Shown here piece after piece: positions 35,533 through 55,968 of a stretch of 64,000 bases of DNA. Made by a program: the position numbers and the translations under genes. Source of the DNA: Candidatus Omnitrophota bacterium (GTDB lineage: Bacteria; Omnitrophota; Gorgyraeia; Zapsychrales; JANLHA01); assembly GCA_022711395.1 (NCBI GenBank), contig JAKLFA010000004.1:70361-134360 (forward strand), given 5' to 3'. The notes under the pieces were generated by a model. It saw only the letters and a program-made list of their open reading frames with translations, did no database searches and was not told where the DNA came from. The stretch's first letter is position 1, and the number at the start of each line of letters is the position of its first letter.

Positions 35533-35995
35533 CTAAACAAGCTCCTTTACCGAATTTAAGGTGCCATGCGGGTTGAATACCGTGGCCTTGTTATGAGGAT
35601 CAATCTGCCATTCTCCATCCACAAAAAATTTATACTCATAACGTCCAGGCCCGGGCAGGGTAACCTTTCGGCGCCAGACACCATCTTTAAACCGTTTGAG
35701 CGGGATCTTGCGGTTCCATCCCGTAAAATCACCAATAACCGCAACTTCAGAAGCGTTCGGGCATGGCCAGATAAAATCAATGGCCTTCTCTTCTTTGGAA
35801 GAATCCCCTTTCATCAGTTCATCAGCCTTAACACCAAGAACTTTCGCAATATCTTTAAGCACAGACGCTTTCAGCTCTCGTTTGTTTGATTCCCACAAGC
35901 AAATCGCCTGACGTGATACGCCAAGCTCTTCAGCTAATTTTTTTTGAGTGAATTTTCGCTTTTGTCTGACTCGTTTGAGATTTTCACCGAACATA
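35533..35995 (-). CDS. XRE-family HTH transcriptional regulator fused to a CBM48/AMPK-beta-type glycogen-binding domain.
   Basis: The HTH is LKRVRQKRKFTQKKLAEELGVSRQAICLWESNKRELKASVLKDIAKVLGVKADELM. The C-terminal domain (WPCPNASEVAVIGDFTGWNRKIPLKRFKDGVWRRKVTLPGPGRYEYKFFVDGEWQIDPHN) matches the early-set glycogen-binding fold (CBM48 / isoamylase N-terminal domain) of AMPK beta and GlgB N-termini. The track ORF starts at 36030. I prefer Met13 (ATG at 35995), which has a GAGGA RBS 6 nt upstream. Confidence 0.7.
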
Positions 35996-36021
35996 GATGT
36001 CCTCACATGATGAACAGAAAA

Positions 36022-36042
36022 TGTTAACAAGGCGTTAACATC
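36022..36042. promoter_or_regulatory. Perfect inverted repeat ATGTTAAC-aaggc-GTTAACAT in the 5' leader of the XRE-CBM48 regulator gene; candidate autoregulatory operator.
   Basis: Exact 8-bp arms, located 27-47 bp upstream of the preferred start codon and downstream of the putative promoter. Confidence 0.4.
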
Positions 36043-37668: not shown

Positions 37669-37671
37669 TCT

Positions 37672-39503: not shown

Positions 39504-40983
39504 AAGGTCTTTTTTGAATCTTAAACCGTTCTCTCAATAAATTTTTATACTGCTCGGGCACCGCCCCCTTTATGTACCAAGCAAAAACACTATAACATAC
39601 CAGCCCAAGAAATGACCTTGCCACCAAAGACACAAACTCATTGCGAAATGTCAGCCATCGGCAAACAGTAAAAATTACCGATGCGCCCATGATTAGAACA
39701 CAAACAGCTTTAAAATCGTAGTTGATCCTATGACGTCTCTGGACCACCCAATAAAGAAGAGCCGTCAAAAACACGTTCGAAAGCGCCGTCGCGAATGCGG
39801 CCCCGCGCACGCCAAATTTGAAGATCAAAAAATAATTCAAAACAACGTTTATAAACGCCGCGTAAACGGAACAGATCGCCATGATCCCTGTTTTTTTTAA
39901 CATCAAAATCACATAAAGAACCGGCAAGGTTAAATAATAAAAAAAATTGGAAAGGGTCAAATAGAAGATCGAATGAACTGATTCGATGTATTCCGGCTGG
40001 CTGCCGAAATAGCGGATCAATATGCGAAGAATGTCTTCCGAGGCCAGCGATATAATGATCAAAAAGGCGCATCCCGCCACAACGAGAAGGCTCAGTAAAT
40101 TCTTAAACATCTCGTCGGTTTGCTCGCGGGTTTTTTGGGCAATGTAAGCGAAGATCACGGGTGGCAAAAGCAAGTTCACGGGACGAAAAACGAACATATT
40201 GAATATCTTTGAGAACATTTCCGCCGTTGAATAAATGCCGACATAAAACCGGCCCAACATAAAATTAATCATCAATTTATCTGTGGATTGCAACGACCAA
40301 ACCGTAAAACTTGTAATGATGAACGGCGCTCCAAGTTTTAGCAGCATCGCCATCTGAGAAATTTTCAGTTCAAAAGACATATAGCGCAGGGTCATCATGT
40401 ATAAGACCGCGTTGACCACGATCATTGCAATAACGGACGATTCGAAATATCCCACGATCCCCCGCCTTAGAACAACTATAAATAAATATTTTAACGCGAA
40501 ATCCACGGCCAGCCTGACAATTGACAAAAGGACGTATGCGTTGGCCCTCTTTTCCATGCGAAGAATGTTAAAAGGAATATCAACGATCAAAAGAAGCGGA
40601 ATGAGGAGCCCAACCATCTGGACTTCACGGACATAAACATCTGAGGAAAAAAATGTCGCAGAGATCTCGCCCGCGTAAAACAAAACCGGGGCCGCACAAA
40701 CAACAGAGCTGATGCAGTACCAAAAAAAGACATTGCCAGACAGCGCCCCCCTGTCTCGTCCCTCCGCCTCATTAAAATACTGGCTTTGGATCGAATTGAT
40801 CAACCCGCAGCTGATGAAGGTAGAGACCAGCGTCACGCCGACCAGAAGGACATTGATGACCCCGTAATCCGCCGGAGAAAACTGGTTTAAGAATAACGGA
40901 AGAAAAAGAAAGTTAATGGCCGATTGGACAACATTCCCAAAGCCGTATACCAAAAAACGCCTGAATTCTTTTATGATCAGCAT
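39496..40983 (-). CDS. Polysaccharide biosynthesis protein / oligosaccharide flippase (Wzx-like, MOP superfamily).
   Basis: 495 aa with about 12-14 TM helices and the typical flippase N-terminus (MLIIKEFRRFLVYGFGNVVQSAINFLFLPLF). It sits inside the glycan gene cluster. Confidence 0.7.
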   Translation of the reverse strand: MLIIKEFRRFLVYGFGNVVQSAINFLFLPLFLNQFSPADYGVINVLLVGVTLVSTFISCGLINSIQSQYFNEAEGRDRGALSGNVFFWYCISSVVCAAPVLFYAGEISATFFSSDVYVREVQMVGLLIPLLLIVDIPFNILRMEKRANAYVLLSIVRLAVDFALKYLFIVVLRRGIVGYFESSVIAMIVVNAVLYMMTLRYMSFELKISQMAMLLKLGAPFIITSFTVWSLQSTDKLMINFMLGRFYVGIYSTAEMFSKIFNMFVFRPVNLLLPPVIFAYIAQKTREQTDEMFKNLLSLLVVAGCAFLIIISLASEDILRILIRYFGSQPEYIESVHSIFYLTLSNFFYYLTLPVLYVILMLKKTGIMAICSVYAAFINVVLNYFLIFKFGVRGAAFATALSNVFLTALLYWVVQRRHRINYDFKAVCVLIMGASVIFTVCRWLTFRNEFVSLVARSFLGLVCYSVFAWYIKGAVPEQYKNLLRERFKIQKRPCA

Positions 40984-41066: not shown

Positions 41067-42077
41067 CTATAACTTGAAATTGACGATCTGCTCATAACGA
41101 GCGTTGCCTCTCTTTAAAAGAAGCAAATTGATGTGATACATTTTTTTCTCTCGATACTTCGCCAAAATTTCATCCGCGCTGTTTATTTTCTTGAGAAAAT
41201 TTTCTGTGCTTTTCTCAGAATCATAGTCATCCGAGATTTCAAACATTTCAAACCCAAACTCCGCAGTGAGCTGAACTAAAAGCCGCTCAGGAGAATTCCC
41301 CATTTTTTCAATCAAAAGAGGAAAGAACTCCATGATGATCTTGGTATTCCGGCATCCTTTTAAAGTTTCTTTCATGCCGTTGATCGCCAAAAATTCCGCC
41401 CCCTCCACGTCAATCTTTATTAAATCAACCTCCGAAATGTTCTGCTCCCTTAAAAACGCATCAATTGATATTGTCGGGACGTCAACTGCAGTGATCCGCT
41501 CTTTGTCAAATTTTGCATTGGTCTCATAGGAAGTGATCCCTTCGGACTGCCTAATCGTGTGATGGCCGGTATCATAAGGACAAATATACAAGGTCGTTTT
41601 TCCATCCTTGTCCGAAGCTGCTTTCTGAAAAGGGTTCATCTGCGTGTATCCATTAAGCTCTTTATTCTTTACAAGACAGGAAAAGTTTCTCGGTTCCGGC
41701 TCAAAAGAAAAGACTTTACCGCTCGGCCCGACGATCTTGGCGGCGAGCAAGCTGAAATAGCCGATGTTCGCCCCCAGATCAAGATAAGTCTGGCCCCGCT
41801 GAAGAAGCTCTCGTTCGATCATCCATGTCGTATGCTGTTCATGGATCCGGTTGGCCGCGTAAATCCGAAAAGTTTTTCTCAGGTCACGGTCTGGTTCGTT
41901 CACGTTCAGATACATCTTGCTGCCATTGATCTCCAGAACTTTCGGCTTAAAATAAAAGATCCAGGGAAAAACGTATTTAAAATAATGATAACTCTCCACA
42001 AGATACGGCACTTTTTCCAAAAACATTCTTAATTTTGATTTGGTCTCCATTATCCCTCCTTCAACAAAAAAGTTCAT
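41067..42077 (-). CDS. FkbM-family methyltransferase.
   Basis: The FkbM-type SAM motif is YLDLGANIGYFSLLAAKIVGPSGKVFSFEPEP. The protein is 336 aa. Confidence 0.65.
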   Translation of the reverse strand: MNFFVEGGIMETKSKLRMFLEKVPYLVESYHYFKYVFPWIFYFKPKVLEINGSKMYLNVNEPDRDLRKTFRIYAANRIHEQHTTWMIERELLQRGQTYLDLGANIGYFSLLAAKIVGPSGKVFSFEPEPRNFSCLVKNKELNGYTQMNPFQKAASDKDGKTTLYICPYDTGHHTIRQSEGITSYETNAKFDKERITAVDVPTISIDAFLREQNISEVDLIKIDVEGAEFLAINGMKETLKGCRNTKIIMEFFPLLIEKMGNSPERLLVQLTAEFGFEMFEISDDYDSEKSTENFLKKINSADEILAKYREKKMYHINLLLLKRGNARYEQIVNFKL

Positions 42078-42092
42078 TCCGGCATTCTGGTA

Positions 42093-43208
42093 TCATCCCT
42101 GTATGATTTTTTCATAAAGGGCCTCTGTTTTTTCCATCTCTTTGTAATAATTGTTACGCTCTTCGATGACCCTCCTTCCGGCTCTGGCAATGTCCTTTGC
42201 ATAAGCCGGGTCCTTAAGCAAATCAACCACTTTTTGGGCCAATTCACGATGATCGCTCAAAGGAAACAAAAATCCACTGACCCCATTCTCAACCCACTTC
42301 CCATTCTCTCCAAAATCTGTTACAACGACAGGAACCTCACAGGCCATTGCCTCAGCCGTGCTGGCGGCCAAACCCCCATCCGAGAGGGACGTTGATACGT
42401 ATACATCCGCAGAAGCCACGACCTTTTGCATTGCTTCATCGGAAAGGCCTTCCAAGAACCTTACCTTTTCTGTTATTCCGAGCTCTTGCACGAGTTGAAC
42501 AAGTTTTGGCTTTTCTTCGCCTCTCCCTACGGCAACAAAACGCGCACTTCCATATTCACGTAAAATTTCAGGAATGGATAAAATAAACGTTCGAACATCA
42601 TAGATGGGCTTCAGTGCCCGCAAACTCAACACAATGGAAACACCCTCTTCAAATCCCAGTTCTTTCCAGATGGAACGGTCTTTCCGGTCCGGGTGAAATT
42701 TACGCACATCCGTTCCAAAATAAATAAGCTGAACTTTCGCCTGATCCGCCCCCAGCTCAATAAGCTTATCCTTCAAATGACGGGCGTCACAAATAAACAA
42801 GGATCCTTGCGGCAAAAATTTACGAATAAAGCATGAAATGAAAAACTTCTTCGTATTAATGAGAATATCCGAACCCCAGGGCGTAATGACAAGCGGAAAA
42901 GAAAGCCCCCAAAAAAGAAAATAATGCGCAAAACTAACCCAATGAACATGGATAAAATCGGGATTGGTTTTACGAATAAAGCTCCGGGCCCTGCTGATGA
43001 TCGGAACAAAAAACAGACATTTCTTCCAAAACCCCCCAGGCAGTCGTATTGTCATCACATTAACATTCGTAAGCTCAACAGTCTGCTCCTCAAAATTGAG
43101 CACATAAACTTCGTTCGTTCCCTTATCCGCAAAGTATTGGATCCACCGCCTCGAATGAACGCTGTTTAATGGGGCAACAAATAAAATCTTCATCCTCTGA
43201 CCACACAC
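42093..43208 (-). CDS. Glycosyltransferase family 4 (GT-B, retaining).
   Basis: The N-terminal block is MKILFVAPLNSVHSRRWIQY. The C-terminal GT4 E..E region reads STSLSDGGLAASTAEAMACEVPVVVTDFGEN. Confidence 0.75.
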   Translation of the reverse strand: MCGQRMKILFVAPLNSVHSRRWIQYFADKGTNEVYVLNFEEQTVELTNVNVMTIRLPGGFWKKCLFFVPIISRARSFIRKTNPDFIHVHWVSFAHYFLFWGLSFPLVITPWGSDILINTKKFFISCFIRKFLPQGSLFICDARHLKDKLIELGADQAKVQLIYFGTDVRKFHPDRKDRSIWKELGFEEGVSIVLSLRALKPIYDVRTFILSIPEILREYGSARFVAVGRGEEKPKLVQLVQELGITEKVRFLEGLSDEAMQKVVASADVYVSTSLSDGGLAASTAEAMACEVPVVVTDFGENGKWVENGVSGFLFPLSDHRELAQKVVDLLKDPAYAKDIARAGRRVIEERNNYYKEMEKTEALYEKIIQG

Positions 43209-43222: not shown

Positions 43223-43942
43223 TTATGATTTCAAAAACTCGTTCCTTCTCTTCTCAAACTCCTGGTTCGCACTTTCAAAATCAGCATGCTGGCCAATATC
43301 AATCCAAAAATACGGATCTTCTGACCTGTAGGCAAAGATATCTTCACCGTCCTGGATCATCTTTTCCACTAGAATGTTAAAATCCAAACGCTCATTTTGC
43401 GGAATATACTGAAGCGCCCTTCGGTTGTATATATAAACACCCATATTATCCTGAAATGTATAGGTCGGCTTCTCAATGAATTCCTTCACGCGATCTTGCC
43501 CGTCAATTTCGAGGATCCCCAGGCTCATCTTGATTTTTTTCTGACCGGCGGCAATGCTCAAAGAAGATTTTTTCTGCTTGTGGAACAAAAAGAAATCCTG
43601 AAAATTCAGCGTCGTAAGAATGTCTCCGTTAATAACAAGAAAATCATCTTCCAATCCATCAATCAATGAGAGCGCCCCGGCGGTGCCGAGCGGCTTGCTT
43701 TCGAGCACATAACGGATGTTCACATCTTTTGGGACCCTCGAATCATTCTTCAGATACACTTCGATCAAATTCCCTAAATACCCAAGGCAAATGACCACGT
43801 CTTTAAAATTGTAATACGCCAACTGCTGAATGATCGTTTCAATGATCGGCTGCCCTCCGACAGGCAACATCGGCTTGGGGAACACCAGCGTGTACGGCGC
43901 CAATCGCGTTCCCTGGCCTCCGGCTAATATAACGGCTTGCAT
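43223..43942 (-). CDS. Sugar-phosphate nucleotidyltransferase (NDP-sugar pyrophosphorylase).
   Basis: The N-terminal MQAVILAGGQGTRLAPYT (GxGxRL) signature is present. The protein is 239 aa with no hexapeptide tail. Confidence 0.75.
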   Translation of the reverse strand: MQAVILAGGQGTRLAPYTLVFPKPMLPVGGQPIIETIIQQLAYYNFKDVVICLGYLGNLIEVYLKNDSRVPKDVNIRYVLESKPLGTAGALSLIDGLEDDFLVINGDILTTLNFQDFFLFHKQKKSSLSIAAGQKKIKMSLGILEIDGQDRVKEFIEKPTYTFQDNMGVYIYNRRALQYIPQNERLDFNILVEKMIQDGEDIFAYRSEDPYFWIDIGQHADFESANQEFEKRRNEFLKS

Positions 43943-43956: not shown

Positions 43957-45060
43957 TCAATGAAAAAATTTCGTTAATGCATCAATCACGTACCCCACCT
44001 CATCTTCTGACAAGGCAGGATGCATTGGGAGCGAAAGCACTTCGCGGGAAATCGCCTCAGTGTTCGGCAAACTGAAATGTGTCAACCCCAAAGCCCGATG
44101 GTGATGTGTCGGTTTTGGCCATGAGATCAGGGTTCCGATCTGTTTATCATTAAGATATTTGACCAATTCATCCCGCCGTTGAGTTCGTATGACATAATTC
44201 TGGTAGACGTCATAATGCCCCTCCTCCACCGGCGGCGGAGGCAGCACCAAGCCGGGCAGGGAAGAAAGCCCATGATGATACGTAGCGGCAATCTTTCTTC
44301 GGTTCGCAACGATCTCCGGCAGATGCTTCATCATGACGGTTAAAACAGCTGCCTGAAGATTATCCAGACGGCTGTTCCATCCCCAAAAAAGGATCTCTCC
44401 TTTCGCCCTATCCTGGCCATTATCTCGCATGCACTTTAATCGGTAATTCAATTCTGGATCGCTTGTCGTTATGGCCCCACCATCTCCAAAACACCCGATA
44501 ACCTTAAACGGATAAAAACTGTTCGTTGAAAGTGCGCCCATTGATCCTGATTTCTTCCCGTTAAACATCGCGCCGATCGCTTGAGCAGAGTCTTCAATAA
44601 TGAACAATCGATGCTTTGCAGCCAACTCCTGCACCCGATCCATCCGGCATACACGGCCGTTAAGATGCACGACAATGATCGCCTTGGTTTTTCGGCTAAT
44701 CGCACGCTCCAAACAATCAACATCCATATTGTAATCATCCGCAACATCCACAAGGACCGGCGTCGCGCCAGCATGAACGATCGAGGCGACCGTCGCAACA
44801 AACGTATGGGAAACCGTAATGACTTCATCCCCGGGACCGATCCCAAGGACCTTTAAAGCCATATTAAGCGCGTCACTCCCATTGGCTACACCGATCGCGT
44901 GTGGAACCCCCGTAAATTCAGCGAACGCATTCTCAAAATCGATCAAATCCTGACGCATAATAAAATCAGCCCGCTGGAAAATGACGCCCTCCAGGACCCC
45001 TCTGATCTCTTGTTCATAACCACTGATCTGCCTTGGCAGATCGACAAAAGGAACCTTCAT
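43957..45060 (-). CDS. DegT/DnrJ/EryC1/StrS-family PLP-dependent sugar aminotransferase (copy 1).
   Basis: The family fold is clear (GVANGSDALNMALK, GDEVITVSHTFVATV, AIIVVHLNGRVC, IIEDSAQAIGA). The PLP Lys lies in FYPFKVIGCFGDGG. Confidence 0.85.
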   Translation of the reverse strand: MKVPFVDLPRQISGYEQEIRGVLEGVIFQRADFIMRQDLIDFENAFAEFTGVPHAIGVANGSDALNMALKVLGIGPGDEVITVSHTFVATVASIVHAGATPVLVDVADDYNMDVDCLERAISRKTKAIIVVHLNGRVCRMDRVQELAAKHRLFIIEDSAQAIGAMFNGKKSGSMGALSTNSFYPFKVIGCFGDGGAITTSDPELNYRLKCMRDNGQDRAKGEILFWGWNSRLDNLQAAVLTVMMKHLPEIVANRRKIAATYHHGLSSLPGLVLPPPPVEEGHYDVYQNYVIRTQRRDELVKYLNDKQIGTLISWPKPTHHHRALGLTHFSLPNTEAISREVLSLPMHPALSEDEVGYVIDALTKFFH

Positions 45061-45073: not shown

Positions 45074-46054
45074 TCAATGATTGGATATCAACTGAAGAAC
45101 TTTTTCCACGATCGTCTGGCTCGTTGGATAATACGCTTTCTCCAACAAACACGAAGCCGGCGCCGGTGAATCCGGCAAAGCGATCCGCTCAATGGGCGCT
45201 TTTAAATCCTGAAATCCGAGATTCGCCACTAAAAAACCCACCTCGGCAGCAATCCCACCGGTCTCCCATCCGCCATCAACAACCAATAACCGTCCGGTCT
45301 TCCTGACCGACGCCAAGACCGTCCCATGATCGATCGGTTTAACGGCCCGCAGATCGATCAGTTCCACCTGAACCTGTCTCTCCCGTAAAGACTCAACAGC
45401 CTTTTTGGCTTCTTCCACCATATAAGAAGACGCGACGATGGTGGCATCTTTTCCCTCAGACACCACTTTCGCCCCCGTAAGCGGCACAGTATAGCCCTGC
45501 TGCGGAACATCAGACTCTTGCTCATACAACCACCTGTCCTCAATAAAAATAAGCGGGTCGTCCTGTTTCACCGCGGCCATCAGCATGCCTTTGGCATCAT
45601 AAGCGTTAGAGGGCATTACGACTTTAAACCCCGGAGCATGCATGAAAAACGCCTGCAAAGCCTGGGAATGCTGAGCGGCCTGTTCTCCGCCCCGATTAAT
45701 AATTGCCCGGATCACCAATGGAACAGGCGCATGACCCCCCAAAGAAAAATTATAAATCGCAGCATGATTAAAGATCTGATCCATGGCGTAATACATAAAA
45801 TCCATCCTCGGAAAAGTCAAAATCGGACGCAGGCCGGTCAATGCAGCCCCGATGGAAATCCCAGTGATCCCGCACTCTGACACGGGCGTATCGATCATCC
45901 TGCGTTCACCAAACCGGTCAAGCAGCCCCGTCAACGTGTTACCTACATACCAAGGCGTATTGACGCCGACCCCAATCTGAAAAACACGCTCGTCACTTTC
46001 CATGATCTGATGGAAAGCCTCATTGATCGCGCATGAATAGGATAACATTCTCAT
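45074..46054 (-). CDS. Thiamine-diphosphate-dependent 2-oxoacid dehydrogenase/transketolase-like E1 beta subunit.
   Basis: The sequence has E1-beta/Tkt C-terminal organisation (MLSYSCAINEAFHQIMESDERVFQIGVGV...GITGISIGAALTGLRPI...RAVKPIDHGTV). The track start at 46108 would overlap the alpha gene by 53 nt, so I chose the internal Met. Confidence 0.7.
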   Translation of the reverse strand: MRMLSYSCAINEAFHQIMESDERVFQIGVGVNTPWYVGNTLTGLLDRFGERRMIDTPVSECGITGISIGAALTGLRPILTFPRMDFMYYAMDQIFNHAAIYNFSLGGHAPVPLVIRAIINRGGEQAAQHSQALQAFFMHAPGFKVVMPSNAYDAKGMLMAAVKQDDPLIFIEDRWLYEQESDVPQQGYTVPLTGAKVVSEGKDATIVASSYMVEEAKKAVESLRERQVQVELIDLRAVKPIDHGTVLASVRKTGRLLVVDGGWETGGIAAEVGFLVANLGFQDLKAPIERIALPDSPAPASCLLEKAYYPTSQTIVEKVLQLISNH

Positions 46055-46055
46055 T

Positions 46056-47033
46056 TTAAAACGCCGCCTTTTCAGTTTTAGCCAAAGGGAGCGGACTCTG
46101 CTGAGCAAAGGACACCGCCCTCTCGATCTCAGCCTCCACTCCTTTTTTCATATCCTCATACTGACGTTCCGAAATCTTCCCCCGCCTGAACAAAACACGC
46201 TTAAGAAACTTTATGGGGCACTTTTTCTTCCAGAACTCCACATCCTCTTTTTTTCGATGCCCGACGTCCAGATCTTCCATATGGCCGACATGCGCCAGCC
46301 AACGGTATGTCATGCATTCCAACAGCGCAGGGCCCTCGCCCCGTTTGATTCTTTCAATAAGCCATTTTGAAGCGTTATAAATTTTTATGGGATCATTCCC
46401 GTTAATACGCCTGGTCCTTATCTTAAAATTCTTTACCCTTTCATAGACCTTCGTATTTGACTGCCGCTTAAAATCCGGAAGATGCGTAGAAAACAGATTG
46501 TTCTCGCAAACGAATAATATCGGCAATTTATACAGAGCCGCGAAGTTGACCGTTTCATAGAACACGCCCTCATCCGTGGCTCCATCGCCAAAAAAGGCCA
46601 CCGAAACAACGCTATTGTTTTTTGTAAGAAAACTTGTAAGCGCCGCACCGGCCGCGATCGGGATCGTTCCGGCAACGATTGCCGAGCTCCCCATAAAACC
46701 CGCGTTAACATCAACCACATGCATGGACCCACCGTAACCTTTAGAACAACCCGCTTCCTTCCCATGTATTTCCGCCATCAAGCTGTTAAGGTCCCCTTGT
46801 TTAGCAATGTAGTGTCCATGGCTGCGGTGTGTGCTGAAAACATAATCCTCCCTGTTTAAATTTGCGCATACGGCAGAAGCGATCGCCTCTTGGCCGACAT
46901 ACAAATGGACCGGGCAACGGACTTCTTTCCGGGCGGCCATTTCCGCCACCCTTTCCTCGAATAAACGAATGGTCAACATTGTTTTCAAAATGCCTTCCAG
47001 CACTTTATCATCGGCCCTGCCCATAATATTCAT
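46056..47033 (-). CDS. Thiamine-diphosphate-dependent E1 alpha subunit (dehydrogenase E1 component).
   Basis: The ThDP-binding region is GSSAIVAGTIPIAAGAAL....VSVAFFGDGATDEGVFYETVNFAALYKLPILFVCENN (GDG-X(n)-NN fold). A YLYVGQEA block is also present. Confidence 0.75.
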   Translation of the reverse strand: MNIMGRADDKVLEGILKTMLTIRLFEERVAEMAARKEVRCPVHLYVGQEAIASAVCANLNREDYVFSTHRSHGHYIAKQGDLNSLMAEIHGKEAGCSKGYGGSMHVVDVNAGFMGSSAIVAGTIPIAAGAALTSFLTKNNSVVSVAFFGDGATDEGVFYETVNFAALYKLPILFVCENNLFSTHLPDFKRQSNTKVYERVKNFKIRTRRINGNDPIKIYNASKWLIERIKRGEGPALLECMTYRWLAHVGHMEDLDVGHRKKEDVEFWKKKCPIKFLKRVLFRRGKISERQYEDMKKGVEAEIERAVSFAQQSPLPLAKTEKAAF

Positions 47034-47056: not shown

Positions 47057-48049
47057 TTAAATGTTAAAAATCTCTGTTTTATACCGTTCCAGGACCCCTT
47101 CCGTTCGAAACCATTTGATCGTAGCTTCCAGTCCCCGCTCCAAAGAATACTTCGGCCGCCAATCCGTCAGTTCAAAAATCTTTTTATTACAACCAAGCAA
47201 ACGTTCCACTTCACTCCTGGCCGGCCTTTTCCGTTCGGCTTCAGCTACAATTTTAACCTTAGATCCCGTCATGGCAACGATCTTCTGCACAAGTTCGCCC
47301 ATTGAAATCTCTTTTTGAGAAGCAATATTGATTTCTTCTCCTATCGTTCTCTTCGATTCCGCGATCTTGATGAAACCATCAACCACGTCCGCCACATAGT
47401 TCAGATCCCTCGTCGGGTGTAAACTTCCCAAAGAAATCGTTTTTTTGCCCGATAAGATCTGTGTCATGATCGTTGGTATGATCGCCCGGGCGGATTGCCG
47501 GGGCCCATACGTATTAAACGGCCTTACAATCGTGACCGGCATGTCAAAACTCCGCAAAAATGATTCCGCAATACGATCAGCCCCGATCTTGGAAGCTGAG
47601 TACGGTGATTGTCCTTGAAACGGATGCCGTTCATCAATGGGAACATACTGGGCCGTGCCATAGACCTCAGAGGTCGATGTAACGAGCACCCTGCGGCAAC
47701 CTTCATCCAAGGCCGCCTGCAGGATATTTAAAGTCCCTTTAATATTCGTATCAACATAACTGTCCGGCGAGTGGTAACTGAACGGGATCCCTATAAGGGC
47801 CGCCAGATGAAAGACCGTATCAACACCTTTAATTGCTTTTCGAACGCCGTTGGGGTCACGGATATCCCCCGGGACGACATCGATCTTCTTTAAAATATTC
47901 TTCGGAAACGTGTCCAGCCAGCCCCAACTGTTAAAAGAATTGTAATACGCAAACGCCCTCACATCATGGCCGGAGGCCGCAAGCATCTCGACCAAATGGC
48001 TTCCAATAAAACCATCCGCCCCGGTTACCAGTATTTTCTTAAGTTTCAT
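47057..48049 (-). CDS. NAD-dependent sugar epimerase/dehydratase (extended SDR).
   Basis: The Rossmann motif is ILVTGADGFIGSHLVE and the catalytic YxxxK is YSASK. The track start at 48130 overlaps the acetyltransferase gene, so I prefer the internal Met in MKLKKILVTG. Confidence 0.75.
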   Translation of the reverse strand: MKLKKILVTGADGFIGSHLVEMLAASGHDVRAFAYYNSFNSWGWLDTFPKNILKKIDVVPGDIRDPNGVRKAIKGVDTVFHLAALIGIPFSYHSPDSYVDTNIKGTLNILQAALDEGCRRVLVTSTSEVYGTAQYVPIDERHPFQGQSPYSASKIGADRIAESFLRSFDMPVTIVRPFNTYGPRQSARAIIPTIMTQILSGKKTISLGSLHPTRDLNYVADVVDGFIKIAESKRTIGEEINIASQKEISMGELVQKIVAMTGSKVKIVAEAERKRPARSEVERLLGCNKKIFELTDWRPKYSLERGLEATIKWFRTEGVLERYKTEIFNI

Positions 48050-48092: not shown

Positions 48093-48644
48093 CTACTCCA
48101 TCCCCCGGCAACGATCACAACAGCGATCATCCGACTTGCCGCCTTTCAAAGGAACACCGCACTTGCAGGCCCAGCCGACCTGGCGCGCAGGCACGCCGAC
48201 CACCACCGCATGATCAGGGACATCAGCCTTGACGACCGCCCCGGCACCGACAAAGGCGTAGCGACCGATCGTCACACCGCATACGATCGTGGCGTTCGCT
48301 CCGATCGAGGCCCCTTTTTTGACGGTCGTCGGCAAAAATTCATCTTTCCGTTCAACAAAAGCCCTCGGCGTATAAACATTGGTAAAAACACACGACGGCC
48401 CGCAAAAAACATCATCTTCCAGCGTCACGCCCTTATAAACCGACACGTTATTCTGGATCTTGCACCCGTTACCGATCGAAACCTCAGGCCCGATGGAAAC
48501 GTTCTGGCCGATCACACAATTTTTCCCGATCCTGGAATTCTTAAGAATGTGGGAAAAATGCCAGATCTTCGTCCCCTCCCCGATCTGGCAGGGCTCATCC
48601 ACATATGATGATTCATGCACAAAATATGTCTTGTTCTGATCCAT
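48093..48644 (-). CDS. Hexapeptide-repeat sugar N-acetyltransferase (WbpD/WlbB-like) with a C-terminal Cys-rich tail.
   Basis: Left-handed beta-helix repeats are present ([31 protein letters not shown]...[28 protein letters not shown]). The sequence is collinear with the UDP-2-acetamido-3-amino-2,3-dideoxyglucuronate N-acetyltransferases. The tail [25 protein letters not shown] is unusual. Confidence 0.7.
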
Positions 48645-48657
48645 AACCTTGTCCTTT

Positions 48658-49623
48658 TTATAACATGCTCTGCTCAGCGGCTTCCAGCACCTTTAAGACC
48701 TTCAGGCCCTCTCGGCCGTCGGTCAAAGGCGCTTGCCGGCTCTCACAGCATGAACAAAAATGTTTCAGCTCCTCTTTGAGCGGTTCCGCTTTCTCGATAG
48801 GCACGACCTGGTATTCCGCTTTGCGAGCGACGGGGATCTTGCCGTCCTTCCAGTCGATCTTATGCGGATATAAAACAAGCTTCTCCTCTTTTTGGTCATC
48901 AAACACGGCCATGGCCCCAGAACCCACAATGACCAGCTTTTGCTCTTTGAACGGATGAAGCCAGCTGACAAACACGTGCGCTTTGACCCTGTTTTTGAAT
49001 TCCAGATGCGTCAAAGTGACATCCGTGATCGGCGCGTTCAAGTAACTTCCGCCAAAACACGAAACACTGACCGGTTCTTCATTAATGAGCGAAAGGATGA
49101 CCGAAATATCGTGCGGAGCGAAGCTCCATAAAATATTTTCTTCCACGCGCAGTTTCCCGATGTTCAGGCGGTTCGAATAAATATACTGGATCTTCCCCAG
49201 CTCTCCCCCTTTGATCATGTCCTTGAGCTTGCGCACAGCCGGATGGTATTGCAGGATGTGCCCGACCATGAGGATGCGCTTATGTTCTTCCGCCAAAAAG
49301 ACGATCTCCTCTCCCTGCGCGACGGTTAACGACAGCGGTTTTTCGACAAACACATCCTTACCGGCCAGGATCGCTTGCTTCGCCAGCTCATAATGGGTCA
49401 CCGCCGGAGCTGAGATCACGACCGCCGAAACCGCCGGATCCTGAATGACCTCATCAGGCGAGGTCGTAAAACCGACCTGCGGATATTCTTTTTTCCTCGT
49501 TTCGATCAGCCCTGCGTCGCGGTCACAGGCCACCAGCAGAACACCGAGTTCATTGAGATTCCGCAATACATTATTTCCCCAATACCCCAGGCCGATCATT
49601 CCGATATTCTTTGCCTGACCCAT
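48658..49623 (-). CDS. Gfo/Idh/MocA-family NAD(P)-dependent oxidoreductase (WbpB-like sugar 3-dehydrogenase candidate).
   Basis: The N-terminal Rossmann segment is [17 protein letters not shown], with the motif EKPLSLT. It is adjacent to the WbpD-like acetyltransferase and to DegT aminotransferases. Confidence 0.75.
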
Positions 49624-49657
49624 TCCAACACCGTCCTTGATAAAATTAAGACCGCGC

Positions 49658-50791
49658 TTAAAGGTCTACCCATTTCTTAACAACTTGACCTACTTCAAAC
49701 TCCCGGGCCAATTGCTTAGCCTTTAGGGCAAAGGCCGCATGGCCTTCATCACAGGCTCTTTCGATAGCGTGGACTATTCCGTCCGCTGAAACGTCCTCCG
49801 CCAGAATCCCGCAGCCATGTTTCTCGATCAAACTTTTCAGATCGCCGACAGGCGTAGAAATCACCGGGACACCGCTTTGAAGGGCGTCCGAAAAAACAAC
49901 CGGTATACTTTCAATGCGTGACGGAATGATCAAGTATCCTACCTTACGAAACACATCGGCCAAATTTTGCGCATCAATAGCGCCGTTGAATTCAACAATA
50001 TCCCGGAGGCCATGTTCGTCGATAAACGACTCCAGCGATTCTTTCAATGGCCCTAATCCATACATATGAACCAGCAGCCTTTTTCGATAAGGTTCCCGCA
50101 ACTTCAATAAGGCCTCCAGCAACAGATCCGGCCCCTTATTGACATGATACCGGCCAACGAACACCATGTGCAAACGCCCTGCGCCATAACGTCCGTCCTC
50201 AATCTCTCTCGGTTTAGGAAGGACCCGCGAAGACGGAAGAAAACCGCACGGGCGTCCTGTGATCTCTTCCACCGAGCGGCAGAGCTCAAGCCCGTCCGCG
50301 AAAACACGATCAGCATGACCGATGATCTTTTTTAAGAACCACTTCCCAAAGAACGGGATCTTTTTTATCCTCCAGATATCCGACCCCAAAGCCCACACAT
50401 CATACGGCTTATTCAATTCCTTCTTCATCCAACAGCCGAGCAGCCCCGAAGGCACCGCCCACATGCACAGCGTTCGATCGATCTGATATTTCTGGTGATC
50501 CTCAATAACTTTTTTTCTGGCCAGCCTGAAAAAATTAAAAATGATCCGCAGATTCCGGATCGAAAAAAACTTTAAGGACGCCAGCTCCTGGTCCCCGCCA
50601 TCCCACGGCAAGGGATCAATGACCAGCCCTTCATCCGGTTCATACGACGGCTTTCTGCCCACCGGCTGCACAATGACCTTATGACCCTGGTCCCGCAGTT
50701 CCAAGGCGAATGACCTCACAAACAGGCCCGCTGTTCCTGACGGGTCCTCCGGATAAGCTGGATACGAACTTGTAATGATCTGAACGTTCAT
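49658..50791 (-). CDS. Glycosyltransferase family 4.
   Basis: The GT-B fold has a C-terminal motif ESIPVVFSDALQSGVPVISTPVGD. The protein is 377 aa. Confidence 0.75.
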   Translation of the reverse strand: MNVQIITSSYPAYPEDPSGTAGLFVRSFALELRDQGHKVIVQPVGRKPSYEPDEGLVIDPLPWDGGDQELASLKFFSIRNLRIIFNFFRLARKKVIEDHQKYQIDRTLCMWAVPSGLLGCWMKKELNKPYDVWALGSDIWRIKKIPFFGKWFLKKIIGHADRVFADGLELCRSVEEITGRPCGFLPSSRVLPKPREIEDGRYGAGRLHMVFVGRYHVNKGPDLLLEALLKLREPYRKRLLVHMYGLGPLKESLESFIDEHGLRDIVEFNGAIDAQNLADVFRKVGYLIIPSRIESIPVVFSDALQSGVPVISTPVGDLKSLIEKHGCGILAEDVSADGIVHAIERACDEGHAAFALKAKQLAREFEVGQVVKKWVDL

Positions 50792-51939
50792 GAACTTAAA
50801 ATATCAGAAACAGCTTCCACCACATCTTCCAGGTCCCGGTCTGTGAGCTTGGGAGAAATGGGGATACTGACTGTCTGCGATCCATAACGGGCGGCGTGAA
50901 CAAAATCCTCAGACCTCCACCCGAACCTTTTTTGATAATACGGATGCTCGGGGATCGCGCAATAATGCACACCGACCCCGATCTTCCGCTTTGTCATTTC
51001 TTCCAGGAACCGGTCCCGGCTCACCCCCGCCTTGGAAGGATCGATCTCGATCGTGAACAAATGATAAGCATGCTTGCTCCCCGGATCCACCGGTGCCGGC
51101 AGACCGACAGGCAAACTCTTCAAACGGTCCATATAGAACTGCCAGATCTGGGAACGCCTTTGCCAGAAGAGGTCGATCTTCTTGATCTGATGGATCCCCA
51201 TCGCCGCCTGCAGGTCCATCATGTTATATTTGAACCCAAGCTCGGTCATAAAATAATGTTTATATCCCTTATCAGAAAACCTTTGCCACGCGTCCGCGCT
51301 GAGCCCGTGAAGCGCCATGATCTTGATCGCCTGGATCCATTCGCTCTTATGGGTTATCGCCATGCCGCCTTCCCCTGTGCTGATATTCTTGGTCGCGTAA
51401 AAACTGAAACATCCAATATCCCCCAGTGTGCCGGCTTTCTGCCCATGGTACTCCGTTTCCAGCGCGTGGGCGCAATCTTCAATAACATAAAGATGATGCC
51501 GCGATGCGACCGCCAGGATCTCATCCATCTTGCAAGGGCGTCCGGCAAAATGCACGATCAGGACCGCCCTGGTCCTGGGCGTGACCTTTCGTTCAATATC
51601 CTCAGGATCAATGTTCAATGTTACCGGGTCAATATCCGCCAGGACCGGCGTTGCCCCAGCATGAATGATCGCGTTGACCGTGGCACAGAACGTCATTGCC
51701 GTCGTGATGACCTCATCCCCCGGTTTCAAGCCCAACGCCAGGCAGGACAAATGCAAAGCCGCCGTGCAGGAATGGACCGCGGCTGAATAAGGAATGTTTT
51801 TATATTGGGCAAACGCCGTTTCAAAAAGTTTGACCTTAGGGCCGGTCCCGATCCAGGACCTGCGCATCGAATCCAGCACTTCCTCCTCTTCCTCCGGCCC
51901 AAAATACGGGCTTCCAAAAACAAGAAACTCCGTTCTCAT
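50788..51939 (-). CDS. DegT/DnrJ/EryC1/StrS-family sugar aminotransferase (copy 2).
   Basis: Blocks matching the family include GDEVITTAMTFCATVNAI, LIVHFAGRPC and VIEDCAHALE. The PLP Lys lies in FSFYATKNISTGEGG. Confidence 0.85.
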   Translation of the reverse strand: MRTEFLVFGSPYFGPEEEEEVLDSMRRSWIGTGPKVKLFETAFAQYKNIPYSAAVHSCTAALHLSCLALGLKPGDEVITTAMTFCATVNAIIHAGATPVLADIDPVTLNIDPEDIERKVTPRTRAVLIVHFAGRPCKMDEILAVASRHHLYVIEDCAHALETEYHGQKAGTLGDIGCFSFYATKNISTGEGGMAITHKSEWIQAIKIMALHGLSADAWQRFSDKGYKHYFMTELGFKYNMMDLQAAMGIHQIKKIDLFWQRRSQIWQFYMDRLKSLPVGLPAPVDPGSKHAYHLFTIEIDPSKAGVSRDRFLEEMTKRKIGVGVHYCAIPEHPYYQKRFGWRSEDFVHAARYGSQTVSIPISPKLTDRDLEDVVEAVSDILSS

Positions 51940-51949
51940 CAGATTCCTT

Positions 51950-52831
51950 TCATAACGAATTCAAGGTCCTGTCCTGAACAATGCGGAGAAGATATTCACC
52001 ATACGATGTTTTAATCTGATGTGCCATTTTTGTCAGCTGTTCAGCGCTAATATACTTCATACGATAAGCGATCTCCTCCACGCATCCGATCTTCAATCCC
52101 TGGCGGTCCTCGATGGTCTTAATAAAAAGAGACGCATTGATCAGCGATTCATACGTGCCTGTATCAAGCCAGGCATACCCCCGTCCCAGCAGTTCCACAT
52201 GCAACGCGCCTTTCTCCAGATACAATTTGTTCAAGTCTGTAATTTCAAGTTCTCCCCGCTGAGATGGCTTGACCTGCTTGGCGTATTCCACGACATTCTG
52301 ATCATAAAAATATAGGCCTGTGACAGCCCAGTTGGACTGAGGCTGGGCCGGTTTTTCTTCAAGCGAGATCACCTTGTTGGAAGAATCAAACTGAACCACT
52401 CCGTAACGTTCAGGGTCCTTCACATAATATCCAAAAATCGTAGCCCCCTTATTATTGGCCGCCGCTGTTTGAAGGATGGCCCTTAAACGGTCTCCATAAA
52501 AGATATTGTCCCCTAAAATAAGCGCGACCGGACTTCCTTTAATGAAATCTTCTGCGATCAAAAACGCCTCGGCAATCCCCTTAGGCTCATCCTGCACAGC
52601 ATAGGACAGCGTCAGCCCAAGATCCCGGCCATCGCCAAAGATCGCGCGGAAATTCTCAACATATTCCGCCGATGCAATAATAAGAATGTCTCTGACCTTG
52701 GCAAGCATCAGCGCCGACAACGGATAATAGATCATCGGCTTATCATAGATAGGCAGAAGTTGTTTGCATATCCCTTTTGTGATCGGATGAAGGCGGGTTG
52801 CCTTTCCTCCGGCGAGAATGATCCCTTTCAT
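51950..52831 (-). CDS. rfbA: Glucose-1-phosphate thymidylyltransferase.
   Basis: MKGIILAGGKATRLHPITKGICKQLLPIYDKPMIYYPLS is the canonical RmlA N-terminus. The protein is 293 aa. Confidence 0.9.
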   Translation of the reverse strand: MKGIILAGGKATRLHPITKGICKQLLPIYDKPMIYYPLSALMLAKVRDILIIASAEYVENFRAIFGDGRDLGLTLSYAVQDEPKGIAEAFLIAEDFIKGSPVALILGDNIFYGDRLRAILQTAAANNKGATIFGYYVKDPERYGVVQFDSSNKVISLEEKPAQPQSNWAVTGLYFYDQNVVEYAKQVKPSQRGELEITDLNKLYLEKGALHVELLGRGYAWLDTGTYESLINASLFIKTIEDRQGLKIGCVEEIAYRMKYISAEQLTKMAHQIKTSYGEYLLRIVQDRTLNSL

Positions 52832-53859
52832 ACGCGTTCCTTTGTCTTCTGAACTTTATACACCTTGCTCCAATGGTCTTTCAATGAGCGGGCCTTCCTG
52901 AGCAGCCAACCCTGATGGTCCAGGCACCAGTCCACCGTCAGCTCCAGCCCCTCTTCAAAAGGCACTTGCGGCTGCCAGCCCAACTTTTTGATCCGGGCGA
53001 TATCCACAGAATAACGGAAATCGTGGCCGGGCCGGTCCTTGACATATTGGATCAACCGCTCAGGCTTGTTCAAACATGCCAGGATCATCTTAACGGTCTT
53101 TATATTCGGCTGTTCAAAACCGCTGCCGATATTATAAATTTCGCCCACACAGCCTTTGCTCATAACGCACTCGATGGCGCGGGCGCAGTCCTCCACATAC
53201 AGCCATTCCCGGACCTGCTCCCCCTTGCCGTAGACCGGGACTCTCTCATCAGAAAGGGCCTTGAGGATCACCACCGGGATCAACTTCTCAGGATATTGCC
53301 ATGGCCCGTAATTGTTCGATGGACGGATGATAATCGCCGGAAATGAGAATGTCCGTATCGCGGCCCGGACCAGCAATTCCGCTCCGGCCTTGGTCGCCGC
53401 ATAAGGATTGTTGGGCTGAAGCGGCGATTCAAATTCTTTAAAATGACCCTGCCGATGGTCTCCATAGACCTCATCGGTCGAAATATGCAGGAATCGCTTG
53501 ACGCCAGAATCCATGCTCAGCTGGACCATCAGCTGTGTCCCGACGACATTGGTCTGTATGAACGGGCGGGCATCCAAGATGCTTCTGTCAACATGAGTTT
53601 CAGCGGCGAAATGAACAACAATATCAGGCCGTTCCTTTTTGAATATCGTCCTCATCCTTTCGGCCTGACAAATATCCGCCCGGTGAAATCCGGCCTGCGG
53701 CAAGACCTCCTTAAGCCGGCCTCGGTCCCCGGCATAGGTCAGACGGTCCACAATGCAGACACGGTAACCTTTTTGCACCAAGAGCCGGCAATAAGCACTG
53801 CCGATAAATCCGGCCCCACCGGTAACAAGAATCTTTTCTTTTCTTTTCAAAGGGGGCAT
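52828..53859 (-). CDS. rfbB: dTDP-glucose 4,6-dehydratase.
   Basis: ILVTGGAGFIGSAY, the YxxxK motif (YAATKAGAEL) and size and collinearity with RmlB all match. A 4-nt overlap with rfbA shows translational coupling. Confidence 0.9.
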   Translation of the reverse strand: MPPLKRKEKILVTGGAGFIGSAYCRLLVQKGYRVCIVDRLTYAGDRGRLKEVLPQAGFHRADICQAERMRTIFKKERPDIVVHFAAETHVDRSILDARPFIQTNVVGTQLMVQLSMDSGVKRFLHISTDEVYGDHRQGHFKEFESPLQPNNPYAATKAGAELLVRAAIRTFSFPAIIIRPSNNYGPWQYPEKLIPVVILKALSDERVPVYGKGEQVREWLYVEDCARAIECVMSKGCVGEIYNIGSGFEQPNIKTVKMILACLNKPERLIQYVKDRPGHDFRYSVDIARIKKLGWQPQVPFEEGLELTVDWCLDHQGWLLRKARSLKDHWSKVYKVQKTKERV

Positions 53860-53866
53860 ATTCTTT

Positions 53867-54970
53867 CTAAACTGTCTTTCGTGTAAATTCTTGGACCGCC
53901 GCGATCACCAGATCTTGTTCTTCTGTGGTCAAAAACGGATGCATCGGCAAGGCCAGGACATGTTCGCACAGCTTTTCCGTGACCGGAAAATCACCTTGTT
54001 TGTACCCGTACTTTCTAAGCGCGGTCTGAAGATGCAGCGGCTTGGGATAATAAACGGCGGTCGGGACCTGCTTTTGCTTCAAATATTCCTGAAGTTCATC
54101 ACGGCGTTGCGCCTGGATCACATACTGGGCGAACACGGAGCGGTTAGACGCATCAATATGTGGCGTCACACAGCATGAAGACAGCCGCTGAGTGTAATAA
54201 TCCGCTTTTTTCTGGCGATCTTCCACCTCCTGCGGAAAATACTTGAGCTTCACCAGAAGGACCGCTGCCTGGATCGTGTCCAGACGGCTGTTAACTCCGA
54301 CACAAGCATGGTCATACTTATGTAAACCCTTTCCATGCAGCCTGATCGATCTCATCACCTGCGCAAAACCATCATCATCGGTAAAAACAGCTCCTCCGTC
54401 GCCAAAACACCCCAAAGGTTTCGCCGGAAAAAACGATGTGCAACTGATATGGCCCAGTGAACATGCCTTGCGCCCTTTATACTCCGCCCCGAATGACTGG
54501 GCCCCGTCTTCGATCACGAACAGATTATAATGCCTTGCGATCGAATGAAGCGCATCATAATCCGCGCACTGCCCAAAAATATCAACAGCAATGATCCCTC
54601 TGGTCTTTCCGGTAATGACCTCCTGTATCCTGGAAGGATCAAGATTATACGTTTTGGGATCGATATCCACAAAGACCGGAACAGCTTTCAAGAACGCAAT
54701 CGTCTCCGCCGCCGCGATAAAGGAAAATGGGGTCGTAATGATCTCGTCCCCTTCCTTTACGCCATAGGCCAGGAGCGCCAGAAGCAAGGCGTCTGTCCCG
54801 GAAGCACAGGTTATGGAATGTTTCACGCCGACAAAATGGGACAGTTCGCTTTCAAGCGTTGCGACCTCCTGCCCCATGATAAAGTTCGCTTTTTGGACGA
54901 CACCAAAAATAGCGGAATCGATCTCCTGCTTATAAATTTCGTATTGCCGCTCCAGATCTATTAACTGCAT
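53867..54970 (-). CDS. DegT/DnrJ/EryC1/StrS-family sugar aminotransferase (copy 3; candidate dTDP-4-keto-6-deoxyglucose transaminase).
   Basis: The family fold is present (GDEIITTPFSFIAAAETI, IIAVDIFGQC, VIEDGAQSFGA). The PLP Lys lies in FFPAKPLGCFGDGG. It is immediately downstream of rfbB. Confidence 0.85.
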   Translation of the reverse strand: MQLIDLERQYEIYKQEIDSAIFGVVQKANFIMGQEVATLESELSHFVGVKHSITCASGTDALLLALLAYGVKEGDEIITTPFSFIAAAETIAFLKAVPVFVDIDPKTYNLDPSRIQEVITGKTRGIIAVDIFGQCADYDALHSIARHYNLFVIEDGAQSFGAEYKGRKACSLGHISCTSFFPAKPLGCFGDGGAVFTDDDGFAQVMRSIRLHGKGLHKYDHACVGVNSRLDTIQAAVLLVKLKYFPQEVEDRQKKADYYTQRLSSCCVTPHIDASNRSVFAQYVIQAQRRDELQEYLKQKQVPTAVYYPKPLHLQTALRKYGYKQGDFPVTEKLCEHVLALPMHPFLTTEEQDLVIAAVQEFTRKTV

Positions 54971-55026
54971 TCTCCCTGCCTCTCATGCCGCGATTGATAA
55001 AAAACACAGCGGGGCCACCCGCTTGC

Positions 55027-55968
55027 TTATTTTTCCATTTCGATCCGCTTGATCCTCAAAAGAACATCTTCCAACAATCTGCGGTTGACGGAGATCAGAT
55101 CCGCCACCAGGCCGATTACCAGAAGCTGGATCCCGGCGATGACGCACACTGAGGCAAACAGCAATGACTGAATGTGTCCTCCTCCCTCTCCAGCCCAATA
55201 GAACAATAAAAACCGCCATCCAATCAAGCCTCCTACGCAAAGCGCGATCACGCCCAAATTCATGAACATCCTCATCGGATTGAACATCGCCCAAACACGG
55301 ACCATGGTCACGATGGAACGGCTGATATATTGCGGAATATTCTTGAAAAGTCTCGACGGACGGTGAACGGGATTGGTCTGAATGGTGATATTTTCAATGG
55401 CAAGGTTCTTATACGCCGCCTGAATAATGGACTCGATCGTGTATGTATAATTGGAAACAATGTTCAGCCGCAGGGCCGCCTCACGGTTATACGCCCTAAA
55501 GCCGGTCGTGGCATCCGGAACATCCGCCCCCGAAAGCTGACGGACCACCGCGCTCCCGATCCGCTGCAGCCTTTTTTTGATCCAGGAGAATTGTTTGACG
55601 TTCTCAATATCACGATTACCGATCACAACATCCGCCCGGCCTTCCACGATCGGCCGCACCAGCCGCGGAATATCCTCTCCCTTATACTGGCCATCCGCGT
55701 CCGTGTTAACAATAATATCCGCGCCTTTTTTTAAACAAGCATCCAGCCCAACCTGAAAGACCGTTGCCAGCCCTTTGGTCTTGGTCAGACGAACAATGTG
55801 GTGAACACCATGCTGCGCGGCCACCTCAGAAGTCCCGTCCGTACTGCCGTCATCGATCACAAGGACTTCGATCATATCAATTCCTGGAATTTGCTTGGGT
55901 AGGGCGGCCAGGGTATGCGGAAGGCTTTCCGCCTCGTTAAGGCATGGGATCTGAATGATCAGCTTCAT
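55027..55968 (-). CDS. GT2-family polyprenyl-phosphate glycosyltransferase (ArnC/GtrB/DPM1-like) with two C-terminal TM helices.
   Basis: The N-terminal GT-A region is MKLIIQIPCLNEAESLPHTL...VLVIDDGSTDGT...IVNTDADGQY (DxD). The C-terminal TM pair is typical of undecaprenyl-phosphate sugar synthases. Confidence 0.8.
   Translation of the reverse strand: MKLIIQIPCLNEAESLPHTLAALPKQIPGIDMIEVLVIDDGSTDGTSEVAAQHGVHHIVRLTKTKGLATVFQVGLDACLKKGADIIVNTDADGQYKGEDIPRLVRPIVEGRADVVIGNRDIENVKQFSWIKKRLQRIGSAVVRQLSGADVPDATTGFRAYNREAALRLNIVSNYTYTIESIIQAAYKNLAIENITIQTNPVHRPSRLFKNIPQYISRSIVTMVRVWAMFNPMRMFMNLGVIALCVGGLIGWRFLLFYWAGEGGGHIQSLLFASVCVIAGIQLLVIGLVADLISVNRRLLEDVLLRIKRIEMEK

Follow-up and report, generated by a model that had tools for sequence, protein, structure and literature searches.

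A putative E1-like, E2-independent thiamine diphosphate enzyme for sugar branching in a surface-glycan gene cluster of a Candidatus Omnitrophota bacterium

A 64,000-nucleotide stretch of a Candidatus Omnitrophota genome (assembly GCA_022711395.1, contig JAKLFA010000004.1, positions 70,361 to 134,360 of the forward strand; hereafter the window) was found to carry, within a surface-glycan gene cluster, two adjacent genes resembling the alpha and beta subunits of the E1 component of 2-oxo acid dehydrogenase complexes. It is proposed that this E1 pair is probably a heteromeric, E2-independent carboligase dependent on thiamine diphosphate (ThDP), of the alpha-KADH2 type, which would add a two-carbon (C2) branch to a nucleoside diphosphate (NDP)-4-keto sugar destined for a surface glycan. 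The original prediction, made from the DNA letters, had likewise suggested a ThDP-dependent C2 transfer onto a keto-sugar nucleotide. This suggestion is supported, at the level of sequence, by synteny with a sugar 4,6-dehydratase and by two substitutions observed in related loci, where a split transketolase takes the place of the E1 pair or a reductase takes the place of the neighbouring aminotransferase.

The E1-alpha-like, ThDP/diphosphate-binding subunit is encoded by an open reading frame (ORF) at 46056-47033 on the minus strand (325 amino acids), which matches the E1_dh family PF00676 over profile positions 2-297 of 300 (E=5.1e-68). The E1-beta-like, pyrimidine-binding/transketolase-C subunit lies in an ORF at 45074-46108 on the same strand and contains the Transket_pyr (PF02779, 6e-31) and Transketolase_C (PF02780, 2e-31) domains. 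The ThDP motif GDG(X)26NN is intact in E1-alpha (G149-D150-G151 and N178-N179) and the active-site His248 is kept, corresponding in the alignment to His263 of human E1-alpha. E1-beta retains the cofactor-activating glutamate and the histidine equivalent to beta E59 and beta H128 of Geobacillus stearothermophilus. The two subunits recognised initially from the letters were thus borne out by Pfam, by the motif and by the catalytic residues. The genes had also been described as overlapping; their adjacency was confirmed, but the apparent overlap proved to be an artefact of a TTG start at 46108. The junction reads GCG TTT TAA A ATG AGA ATG, with the E1-alpha TAA at 46058-46056 and, one base further on, an ATG at 46054 which is the likely real start of E1-beta (45074..46054, 326 amino acids). 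With this start the genes abut without any true overlap, and they look translationally coupled.

Given these domains, the pair might be taken for the E1 of an ordinary pyruvate, acetoin or branched-chain 2-oxo acid (BCKA) dehydrogenase with its E2 and E3 genes at some other place in the genome. The best NCBIfam models for both subunits are indeed those of pyruvate dehydrogenase (PDH) E1, the histidines used in lipoamide acylation are retained, and the fold, domains, ThDP motif and catalytic glutamate and histidine are held in common with the pyruvate, acetoin and BCKA enzymes; human PDH E1 alpha and the E1 beta of Pyrobaculum or Geobacillus are the closest structures solved. However, E1-alpha scored 309 bits against TIGR03182 (cutoff 394) and E1-beta 307 bits against NF006667 (cutoff 321), so that both subunits fell below the NCBIfam equivalog cutoffs for E1 of the pyruvate, acetoin or BCKA dehydrogenase complexes. 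When the whole 64-kb window was searched by tblastn with E2 and E3 representatives (E<=1e-3), no homologue of either was found, in agreement with the original prediction. The nearest genome loci to the pair are in Candidatus Omnitrophota metagenome-assembled genomes (MAGs), and E1-alpha is identical to a MAG protein labelled only 'thiamine pyrophosphate-dependent dehydrogenase E1 component subunit alpha'.

A scan of genomes (one per species) yielded 80 loci encoding both subunits (E1a and E1b, together E1ab) at 40-65% identity. Their neighbours were mapped by tblastn and ORF clustering, with Pfam run on the cluster representatives, and a neighbour-joining tree was constructed from concatenated E1a and E1b (80 taxa, 625 columns). 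In one set of loci, the E2-linked set, a lipoyl-E2 gene, in many cases with E3 as well, comes after E1a-E1b, while in the sugar-context set E2 and E3 are absent and sugar genes adjoin the pair. Three sub-types of the latter were observed: DegT-E1a-E1b-Bac_transf with PglF-like dehydratases; heptose-pathway genes (GmhA-, HldE-, GmhB-like or GHMP kinase) together with a short-chain dehydrogenase/reductase (SDR) and E1ab; and the cassette of the window. All 47 sugar-context pairs were split from all E2-linked pairs with a bootstrap of 100/100, the window falling in the sugar clade; the cassette clade was also supported at 100/100, and its union with the phosphoglycosyltransferase class at 97/100. 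E2 was present at none of 46 sugar-context loci versus all 28 E2-linked loci, while DegT (31/46 versus 0/28) and SDR genes (18/46 versus 0/28) were found within 1.5 kb in the sugar-context set only. Several residues are invariant throughout the sugar clade but not seen in the E2 clade, among them beta R83, beta Q125, alpha R190 and alpha G250; at the position of beta R83, which aligns with beta F82 of G. stearothermophilus, the E2 clade has phenylalanine. The window pair, then, has no adjacent lipoyl-E2 or E3 and does not group with E2-linked pairs, the two observations on which the original prediction had been staked. Inside the E2-linked class, a duplication was noted in one MAG (L060:6031-10000), which carries two tandem E1a-E1b pairs beside E3 and E2.

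The window pair sits in a cassette of six genes, all on the minus strand. Upstream of E1-alpha by 23 nt, and directly upstream of it in all cassette relatives, is a LegB-like NAD-dependent NDP-N-acetylhexosamine (HexNAc) 4,6-dehydratase of the SDR family (47057..48049; 504 bits to TIGR04180, cutoff 475; TSE and YxxxK motifs), which is presumed to make the 4-keto-6-deoxy acceptor; its ORF extends to 48130, with a likely start at M28 (MKLKKILVTG). On the other side of the pair are DegT_C, a pyridoxal phosphate aminotransferase (43957..45060; PF01041 3e-103; catalytic lysine motif SFYPFK), a sugar-1-phosphate nucleotidyltransferase of 239 amino acids (43223..43942; PF00483 4e-40) and a GT4 glycosyltransferase with a Glyco_trans_4_2 N-domain (42093..43208; Pfam), presumed to be the transferase for the modified sugar. 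The nucleotidyltransferase, whose best NCBIfam matches are guanylyl- and uridylyl-transferases, all below cutoff, would supply the NDP-sugar of the cassette.

This order (SDR-E1a-E1b-DegT-nucleotidyltransferase-GT4) is kept in five independent relatives at 58-74% identity (L001, L003, L004, L089 and, in a Spirochaetales MAG, L090), with a methyltransferase inserted after E1b in L004. The FkbM, Wzx and class I methyltransferase genes of the window are syntenic in L001, L003 and L004, and the block upstream of the cassette (48093..55968) is entirely syntenic in L001. Since gaps of only 1-23 nt separate the E1 pair from the neighbouring sugar genes, the operon appears to be a tight one. Such an operon and the retention of the sugar cassette in five relatives, added to the missed equivalog cutoffs and the complete separation from E2-linked pairs in the tree, make a catabolic E1 highly improbable. 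Among cultured bacteria the genes are carried by a plasmid of Azospirillum ramasamyi M2T2B2 (NZ_CP029835; SDR-E1a-E1b-DegT) and by pDMC1 of Solidesulfovibrio magneticus RS-1 (kinase-E1a-E1b-SDR-DegT-SDR-nucleotidyltransferase), in both cases with generic annotations throughout. Carriers of the sugar clade were found in Omnitrophota, Nitrospira, Gemmatimonadota, Planctomycetota, Bdellovibrionaceae, Margulisiibacteriota, Spirochaetales, Azospirillum and Solidesulfovibrio.

At one relative of the cassette (L088; 60% identity; 5767-10894), an aldo-keto reductase occupies the DegT position after E1b, and the nucleotidyltransferase carries a CBS domain; the locus is a natural example of reduction in a slot that elsewhere serves amination. 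A scan of metagenomes with DegT_C yielded 80 loci, 18 of which had a relative of at least 40% identity with 3 kb or more of flanking sequence to each side. A two-subunit ThDP enzyme adjoined DegT at 16 of the 18, being E1ab in 11 cases (within 3.5 kb) and a split transketolase in 5; the DegT of the remaining two (L147 and L148) is frameshifted, and L147, the locus examined, has few long ORFs. The split transketolase, found at 11 loci in all, consists of a Transketolase_N protein (TK-N, 269 amino acids) and a Transket_pyr/Transketolase_C protein (TK-C, 303 amino acids). At L114 (5001-9293) the order is DegT, TylF-like methyltransferase, TK-N, TK-C and Bac_transf, and a PglF-like gene lies on the other strand. 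A split transketolase stands in the place of E1ab also at L103, L112, L117, L124, L129, L130, L134, L135 and L150, where it is likewise placed between a DegT_C-like aminotransferase and a PglC-like phosphoglycosyltransferase, near genes for a TylF-like methyltransferase and a PglF-like dehydratase. Both E1 enzymes and transketolases make a ThDP-bound C2 carbanion and pass it to an electrophilic carbonyl. The interchange of E1ab with a split transketolase in a single slot, beside a constant keto-sugar SDR and followed by an enzyme that processes a carbonyl, therefore suggests that a C-C branch is formed, that is, branching of an NDP-4-keto sugar and subsequent modification of the branch ketone by an aminotransferase or a reductase.

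The gene order of the sister class could also be read in terms of N-acylation, with DegT first aminating C4 and E1ab then acylating the amine from a 2-oxo acid, in a role of the PglD type. The operon order pglE-pglD-pglC has its counterpart in DegT-E1a-E1b-Bac_transf, near which a PglF-like dehydratase is encoded, and a hexapeptide acetyltransferase is uncommon in these loci. An acyl-ThDP would, however, need an oxidant or a leaving group, none of which is encoded, and the operon slot of E1ab is elsewhere filled by a split transketolase, which makes C-C bonds only. DegT is moreover not always present: L088 has the aldo-keto reductase instead, and 14 sugar-clade loci have no such aminotransferase within 8 kb (in 6 of these the sequence extends 6.9 kb or more to either side of the pair), which argues that the pair needs no amine substrate. 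DegT_C itself scored 233-289 bits against its closest solved structures, which include DesV, QdtB, WlaRG and WbpE, compared to 210 bits against perosamine synthase and 115-122 bits against PglE and PseC. It is 40% identical to DegT_A and 31% identical to DegT_B, the other aminotransferases of the cluster, and its score against the LegC model TIGR04181 was 198 bits (cutoff 420). These scores and identities indicate that DegT_C is not a C4 aminotransferase of the LegC or PglE type, and its distance from PglE and PseC is a further point against N-acylation, which is considered improbable.

If the E1 pair is indeed a branching carboligase, the nucleotidyltransferase would make an NDP-HexNAc, which the LegB-like SDR (a firm assignment as to family) would convert to the predicted NDP-2-acetamido-2,6-dideoxy-4-hexulose. 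E1ab would then decarboxylate pyruvate to hydroxyethylidene-ThDP and add this unit to the C4 carbonyl, as its clade, synteny and precedents suggest, giving a tertiary alcohol with a 4-C-acetyl branch. Least certain is the step in which DegT_C would turn the branch ketone into a 1-aminoethyl group; it is assigned to DegT_C because the branch carbonyl would be the sole carbonyl left after C4 addition. Finally, the GT4 enzyme would put the sugar, possibly after methylation, into a Wzx-exported surface glycan. It is possible, though held with less than even confidence, that the cassette makes a 2-acetamido-2,6-dideoxy-hexose bearing a 4-C-(1-aminoethyl) group, possibly N- or O-methylated and in no glycan described, and that the E2-less E1ab clade, interchangeable with split transketolases, feeds C2-branched amino sugars to surface polysaccharides in many lineages.

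C2 branching could be correct in principle and still differ in detail, with the branch at C3, another 2-oxo acid as donor, or DegT acting on a ring carbon. Known alpha-KADH2 enzymes branch at C3 (aldgamycin, kibdelomycin) as well as at C4 (PMC12247030), and ring C3-aminotransferases are the closest solved relatives of DegT_C; but the cassette holds neither a 3,4-ketoisomerase nor a second oxidoreductase that might provide another ring ketone, and once C4 has been attacked only the branch carbonyl would remain for transamination. A variant of this kind is regarded as rather unlikely, and branching at C4 followed by modification of the branch is preferred.

Several considerations weigh against the proposed C2 branching by the E1 pair. 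It is predicted from gene context, and the functional likeness to KbDH, AviB, AlmD and Pau (see below) is argued from shared architecture. DegT_C resembles ring C3-aminotransferases (DesV, QdtB, WbpE) and perosamine synthase. The tendency of DegT and ketoreductase-like genes to alternate among the genome loci (2x2 table 31/1 versus 9/5, Fisher p=0.007) speaks for the branching, but the test behind it ignores phylogenetic non-independence.

Precedents for the proposed chemistry are found among PDH-like alpha/beta pairs. AviB1/B2, Pau11/12 (= Plm8/9) and EvdU5/S3 have been proposed, on genetic or analogy arguments, to attach a C2 unit from pyruvate to C4 of NDP-4-keto sugars as a branch (PMC4802897, PMC4753412, PMC10338323). 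A 2025 review groups the PDH-like sugar-branching pairs as 'alpha-KADH2', and describes how KbDH-alpha/beta of the kibdelomycin pathway joins pyruvate to ketone sugar analogues in vitro; the branch ketone is variously reduced, methylated, oxidised 'or transaminated (kibdelomycin)' (PMC12247030). Steitz et al. similarly name 'reductases, transaminases, or oxygenases' as the enzymes that go on to modify acetyl branches (PMC9306805). The window pair resembles the alpha-KADH2 pairs (KbDH, AviB1/B2, Pau11/12, AlmDI/DII and EvdU5/EvdS3) in having separate, intact E1-like alpha and beta subunits, in the absence of E2 and E3 from the window, and in its position beside an NDP-sugar 4,6-dehydratase. Those pairs, however, belong to actinomycete antibiotic clusters, whereas that of the window lies among Wzx-type surface-glycan genes in a bacterium that is uncultured and Omnitrophota-like, and its acceptor is probably a 2-acetamido sugar from the LegB-like enzyme. 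By analogy of architecture, the window pair may thus be a new enzyme of the alpha-KADH2 type, with chemistry that is already known but in an unusual setting. The branch-then-transaminate logic predicted for the window is that of kibdelomycin, the differences being the surface glycan and the probable HexNAc-type substrate.

The split-gene transketolases of miharamycin and amipurimycin are likewise two-subunit ThDP enzymes, proposed for hydroxyacetyl branching of keto sugars, and in loci related to the window such enzymes occupy the same slot beside a DegT_C-type aminotransferase. They differ in belonging to another ThDP superfamily, in that they would transfer a glycolaldehyde rather than an acetaldehyde unit, and in having been reported from Streptomycetes only (PMC12247030). 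The same review places alpha-KADH2 pairs and split-gene transketolases in secondary metabolite pathways and YerE-like enzymes in lipopolysaccharide (LPS) pathways.

Yersiniose-type pathways had been given as the model in the original prediction, of which the branching of the sugar is supported and the yersiniose comparison is not. YerE (CDP-4-aceto-3,6-dideoxygalactose synthase) is a single-chain flavoprotein of the decarboxylase/acetolactate synthase type, the architecture of which is not homologous to an E1 alpha/beta pair. In Pfam the window pair consists of E1_dh and Transket_pyr/Transketolase_C only, without the single-chain TPP_enzyme_N/M/C arrangement of YerE, and AviB1/B2, Pau11/12 and KbDH are the better precedents. 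What YerE, ErwE and MygE of LPS branched-sugar synthesis do share with the proposed pathway is that a 2-oxo acid is joined to an NDP-4-keto sugar with the aid of ThDP and that the ketone of the side chain is modified afterwards (PMC9306805).

The cassette was also compared with the front end of legionaminic acid synthesis (PtmE, LegB, LegC) and with the bacillosamine operon (PglF, PglE, PglD, PglC), in which a DegT aminotransferase likewise accompanies a nucleotidyltransferase and a HexNAc 4,6-dehydratase; like the bacillosamine operon, the sister class ends in a PglC-like phosphoglycosyltransferase. In contrast to these systems, the LegB-type dehydratase of the window is accompanied neither by LegC (TIGR04181) nor by NeuB, NeuC/Epimerase_2 or NeuA/CMP-transferase domains, none of which was found by Pfam among the cluster genes. 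The cassette also has no PglD-type acetyltransferase, its DegT_C is not of the LegC or PglE type, and E1ab would constitute an extra step.

Decarboxylation of a nonulosonic or 3-deoxy-D-manno-octulosonic acid (Kdo)-type 2-oxo sugar acid was rejected, as the cluster has no NeuB- or KdsA-like synthase. A phosphonate/choline-type head-group pathway was rejected on account of the lack of a phosphoenolpyruvate mutase or kinase, a ThDP enzyme that is not of the Ppd type, and an SDR that is LegB-like. An E1 pair in the Coxiella O-antigen locus, considered as a parallel, was dropped, as it is mentioned in neither PMC5843353 nor PMC3539893; a paper on the Tenacibaculum O-antigen makes no mention of E1, thiamine or transketolase, and nothing relevant was found in the literature on E1 pairs in O-antigen or bacillosamine settings.

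C-branched sugars, with their tertiary-alcohol stereocentres, are rare and strongly antigenic on bacterial surfaces, and occur also in antibiotics. The window and the approximately 47 related loci suggest that heteromeric branching enzymes are also common in surface-glycan clusters across many, mostly uncultured, phyla, and that they are usually paired with a dedicated aminotransferase. Branching throughout the clade would, if true, overturn the picture in which YerE-type enzymes serve LPS while alpha-KADH2 pairs and transketolases serve secondary metabolism. An undescribed class of branched amino sugar is predicted; neither the apparent breadth of the clade in envelope glycans nor an aminoethyl-branched HexNAc was found described in the literature examined. 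The pairs also offer expressible candidates for new carboligases yielding tertiary alcohols, with A. ramasamyi and S. magneticus RS-1 as cultured carriers, and a warning for annotation arises, as E2-less genes of the sugar clade are at present labelled 'pyruvate/acetoin dehydrogenase E1'.

The cluster around the cassette runs from 55968 down to 38745, with all genes on the minus strand and gaps of approximately 1-50 nt. The sugar genes initially reported to flank the pair were all recovered, in the form of three DegT aminotransferases, two nucleotidyltransferases (NDP-sugar pyrophosphorylases) and several glycosyltransferases. Below the cassette are an FkbM methyltransferase (41067-42077), a Wzx-type flippase (39496-40983) and a class I methyltransferase (38745-39503), all assigned by Pfam. 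The upstream block (48093..55968; Pfam, NCBIfam) comprises, in order, GT2, DegT_A, RmlB-like, RmlA, DegT_B, GT4, GFO/MocA dehydrogenase and hexapeptide acyltransferase genes, and looks like separate amino-sugar pathways. Within it, the GFO/MocA dehydrogenase and hexapeptide acyltransferase (48093-49623) together with DegT_A (53867-54970) are WbpB/WbpD/WbpE-like, on the way toward a 2,3-diacetamido sugar, and RmlA, RmlB and DegT_B (50788-53859) resemble the route to a dTDP-4-amino-4,6-dideoxyhexose. Three different amino sugars are probably made by the cluster, which is bordered by alpha-glucan genes on one side and by FeoB and a DtxR-like repressor on the other.

Elsewhere in the window, two adjacent minus-strand ORFs at 20888-24769 and 24891-29603 (1293 and 1570 amino acids) gave no Pfam match at E<=1e-6. 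An ORF of 1141 amino acids at 6078-9503 (minus strand) encodes a fusion of an MFS transporter, a PlsC-type acyltransferase and an AMP-binding domain, resembling Aas-like lysophospholipid transport and re-acylation. A small protein encoded at 35533-36030 (minus strand) fuses an HTH_3/Cro-type domain to a glycogen-binding CBM48/AMPK1_CBM domain; as its gene adjoins those for a GH57 branching enzyme and a GT4/GT5 glucan synthase, it may be a glucan-sensing regulator. Convergent with the glycan cluster at its 3' end, a PMT_2/ArnT-like lipid-linked glycosyltransferase and a metallophosphoesterase are encoded on the plus strand (36232-38628), and on pDMC1 of S. magneticus (L087) a gene annotated 'phospholipid carrier-dependent glycosyltransferase' was observed just after the E1ab sugar genes.

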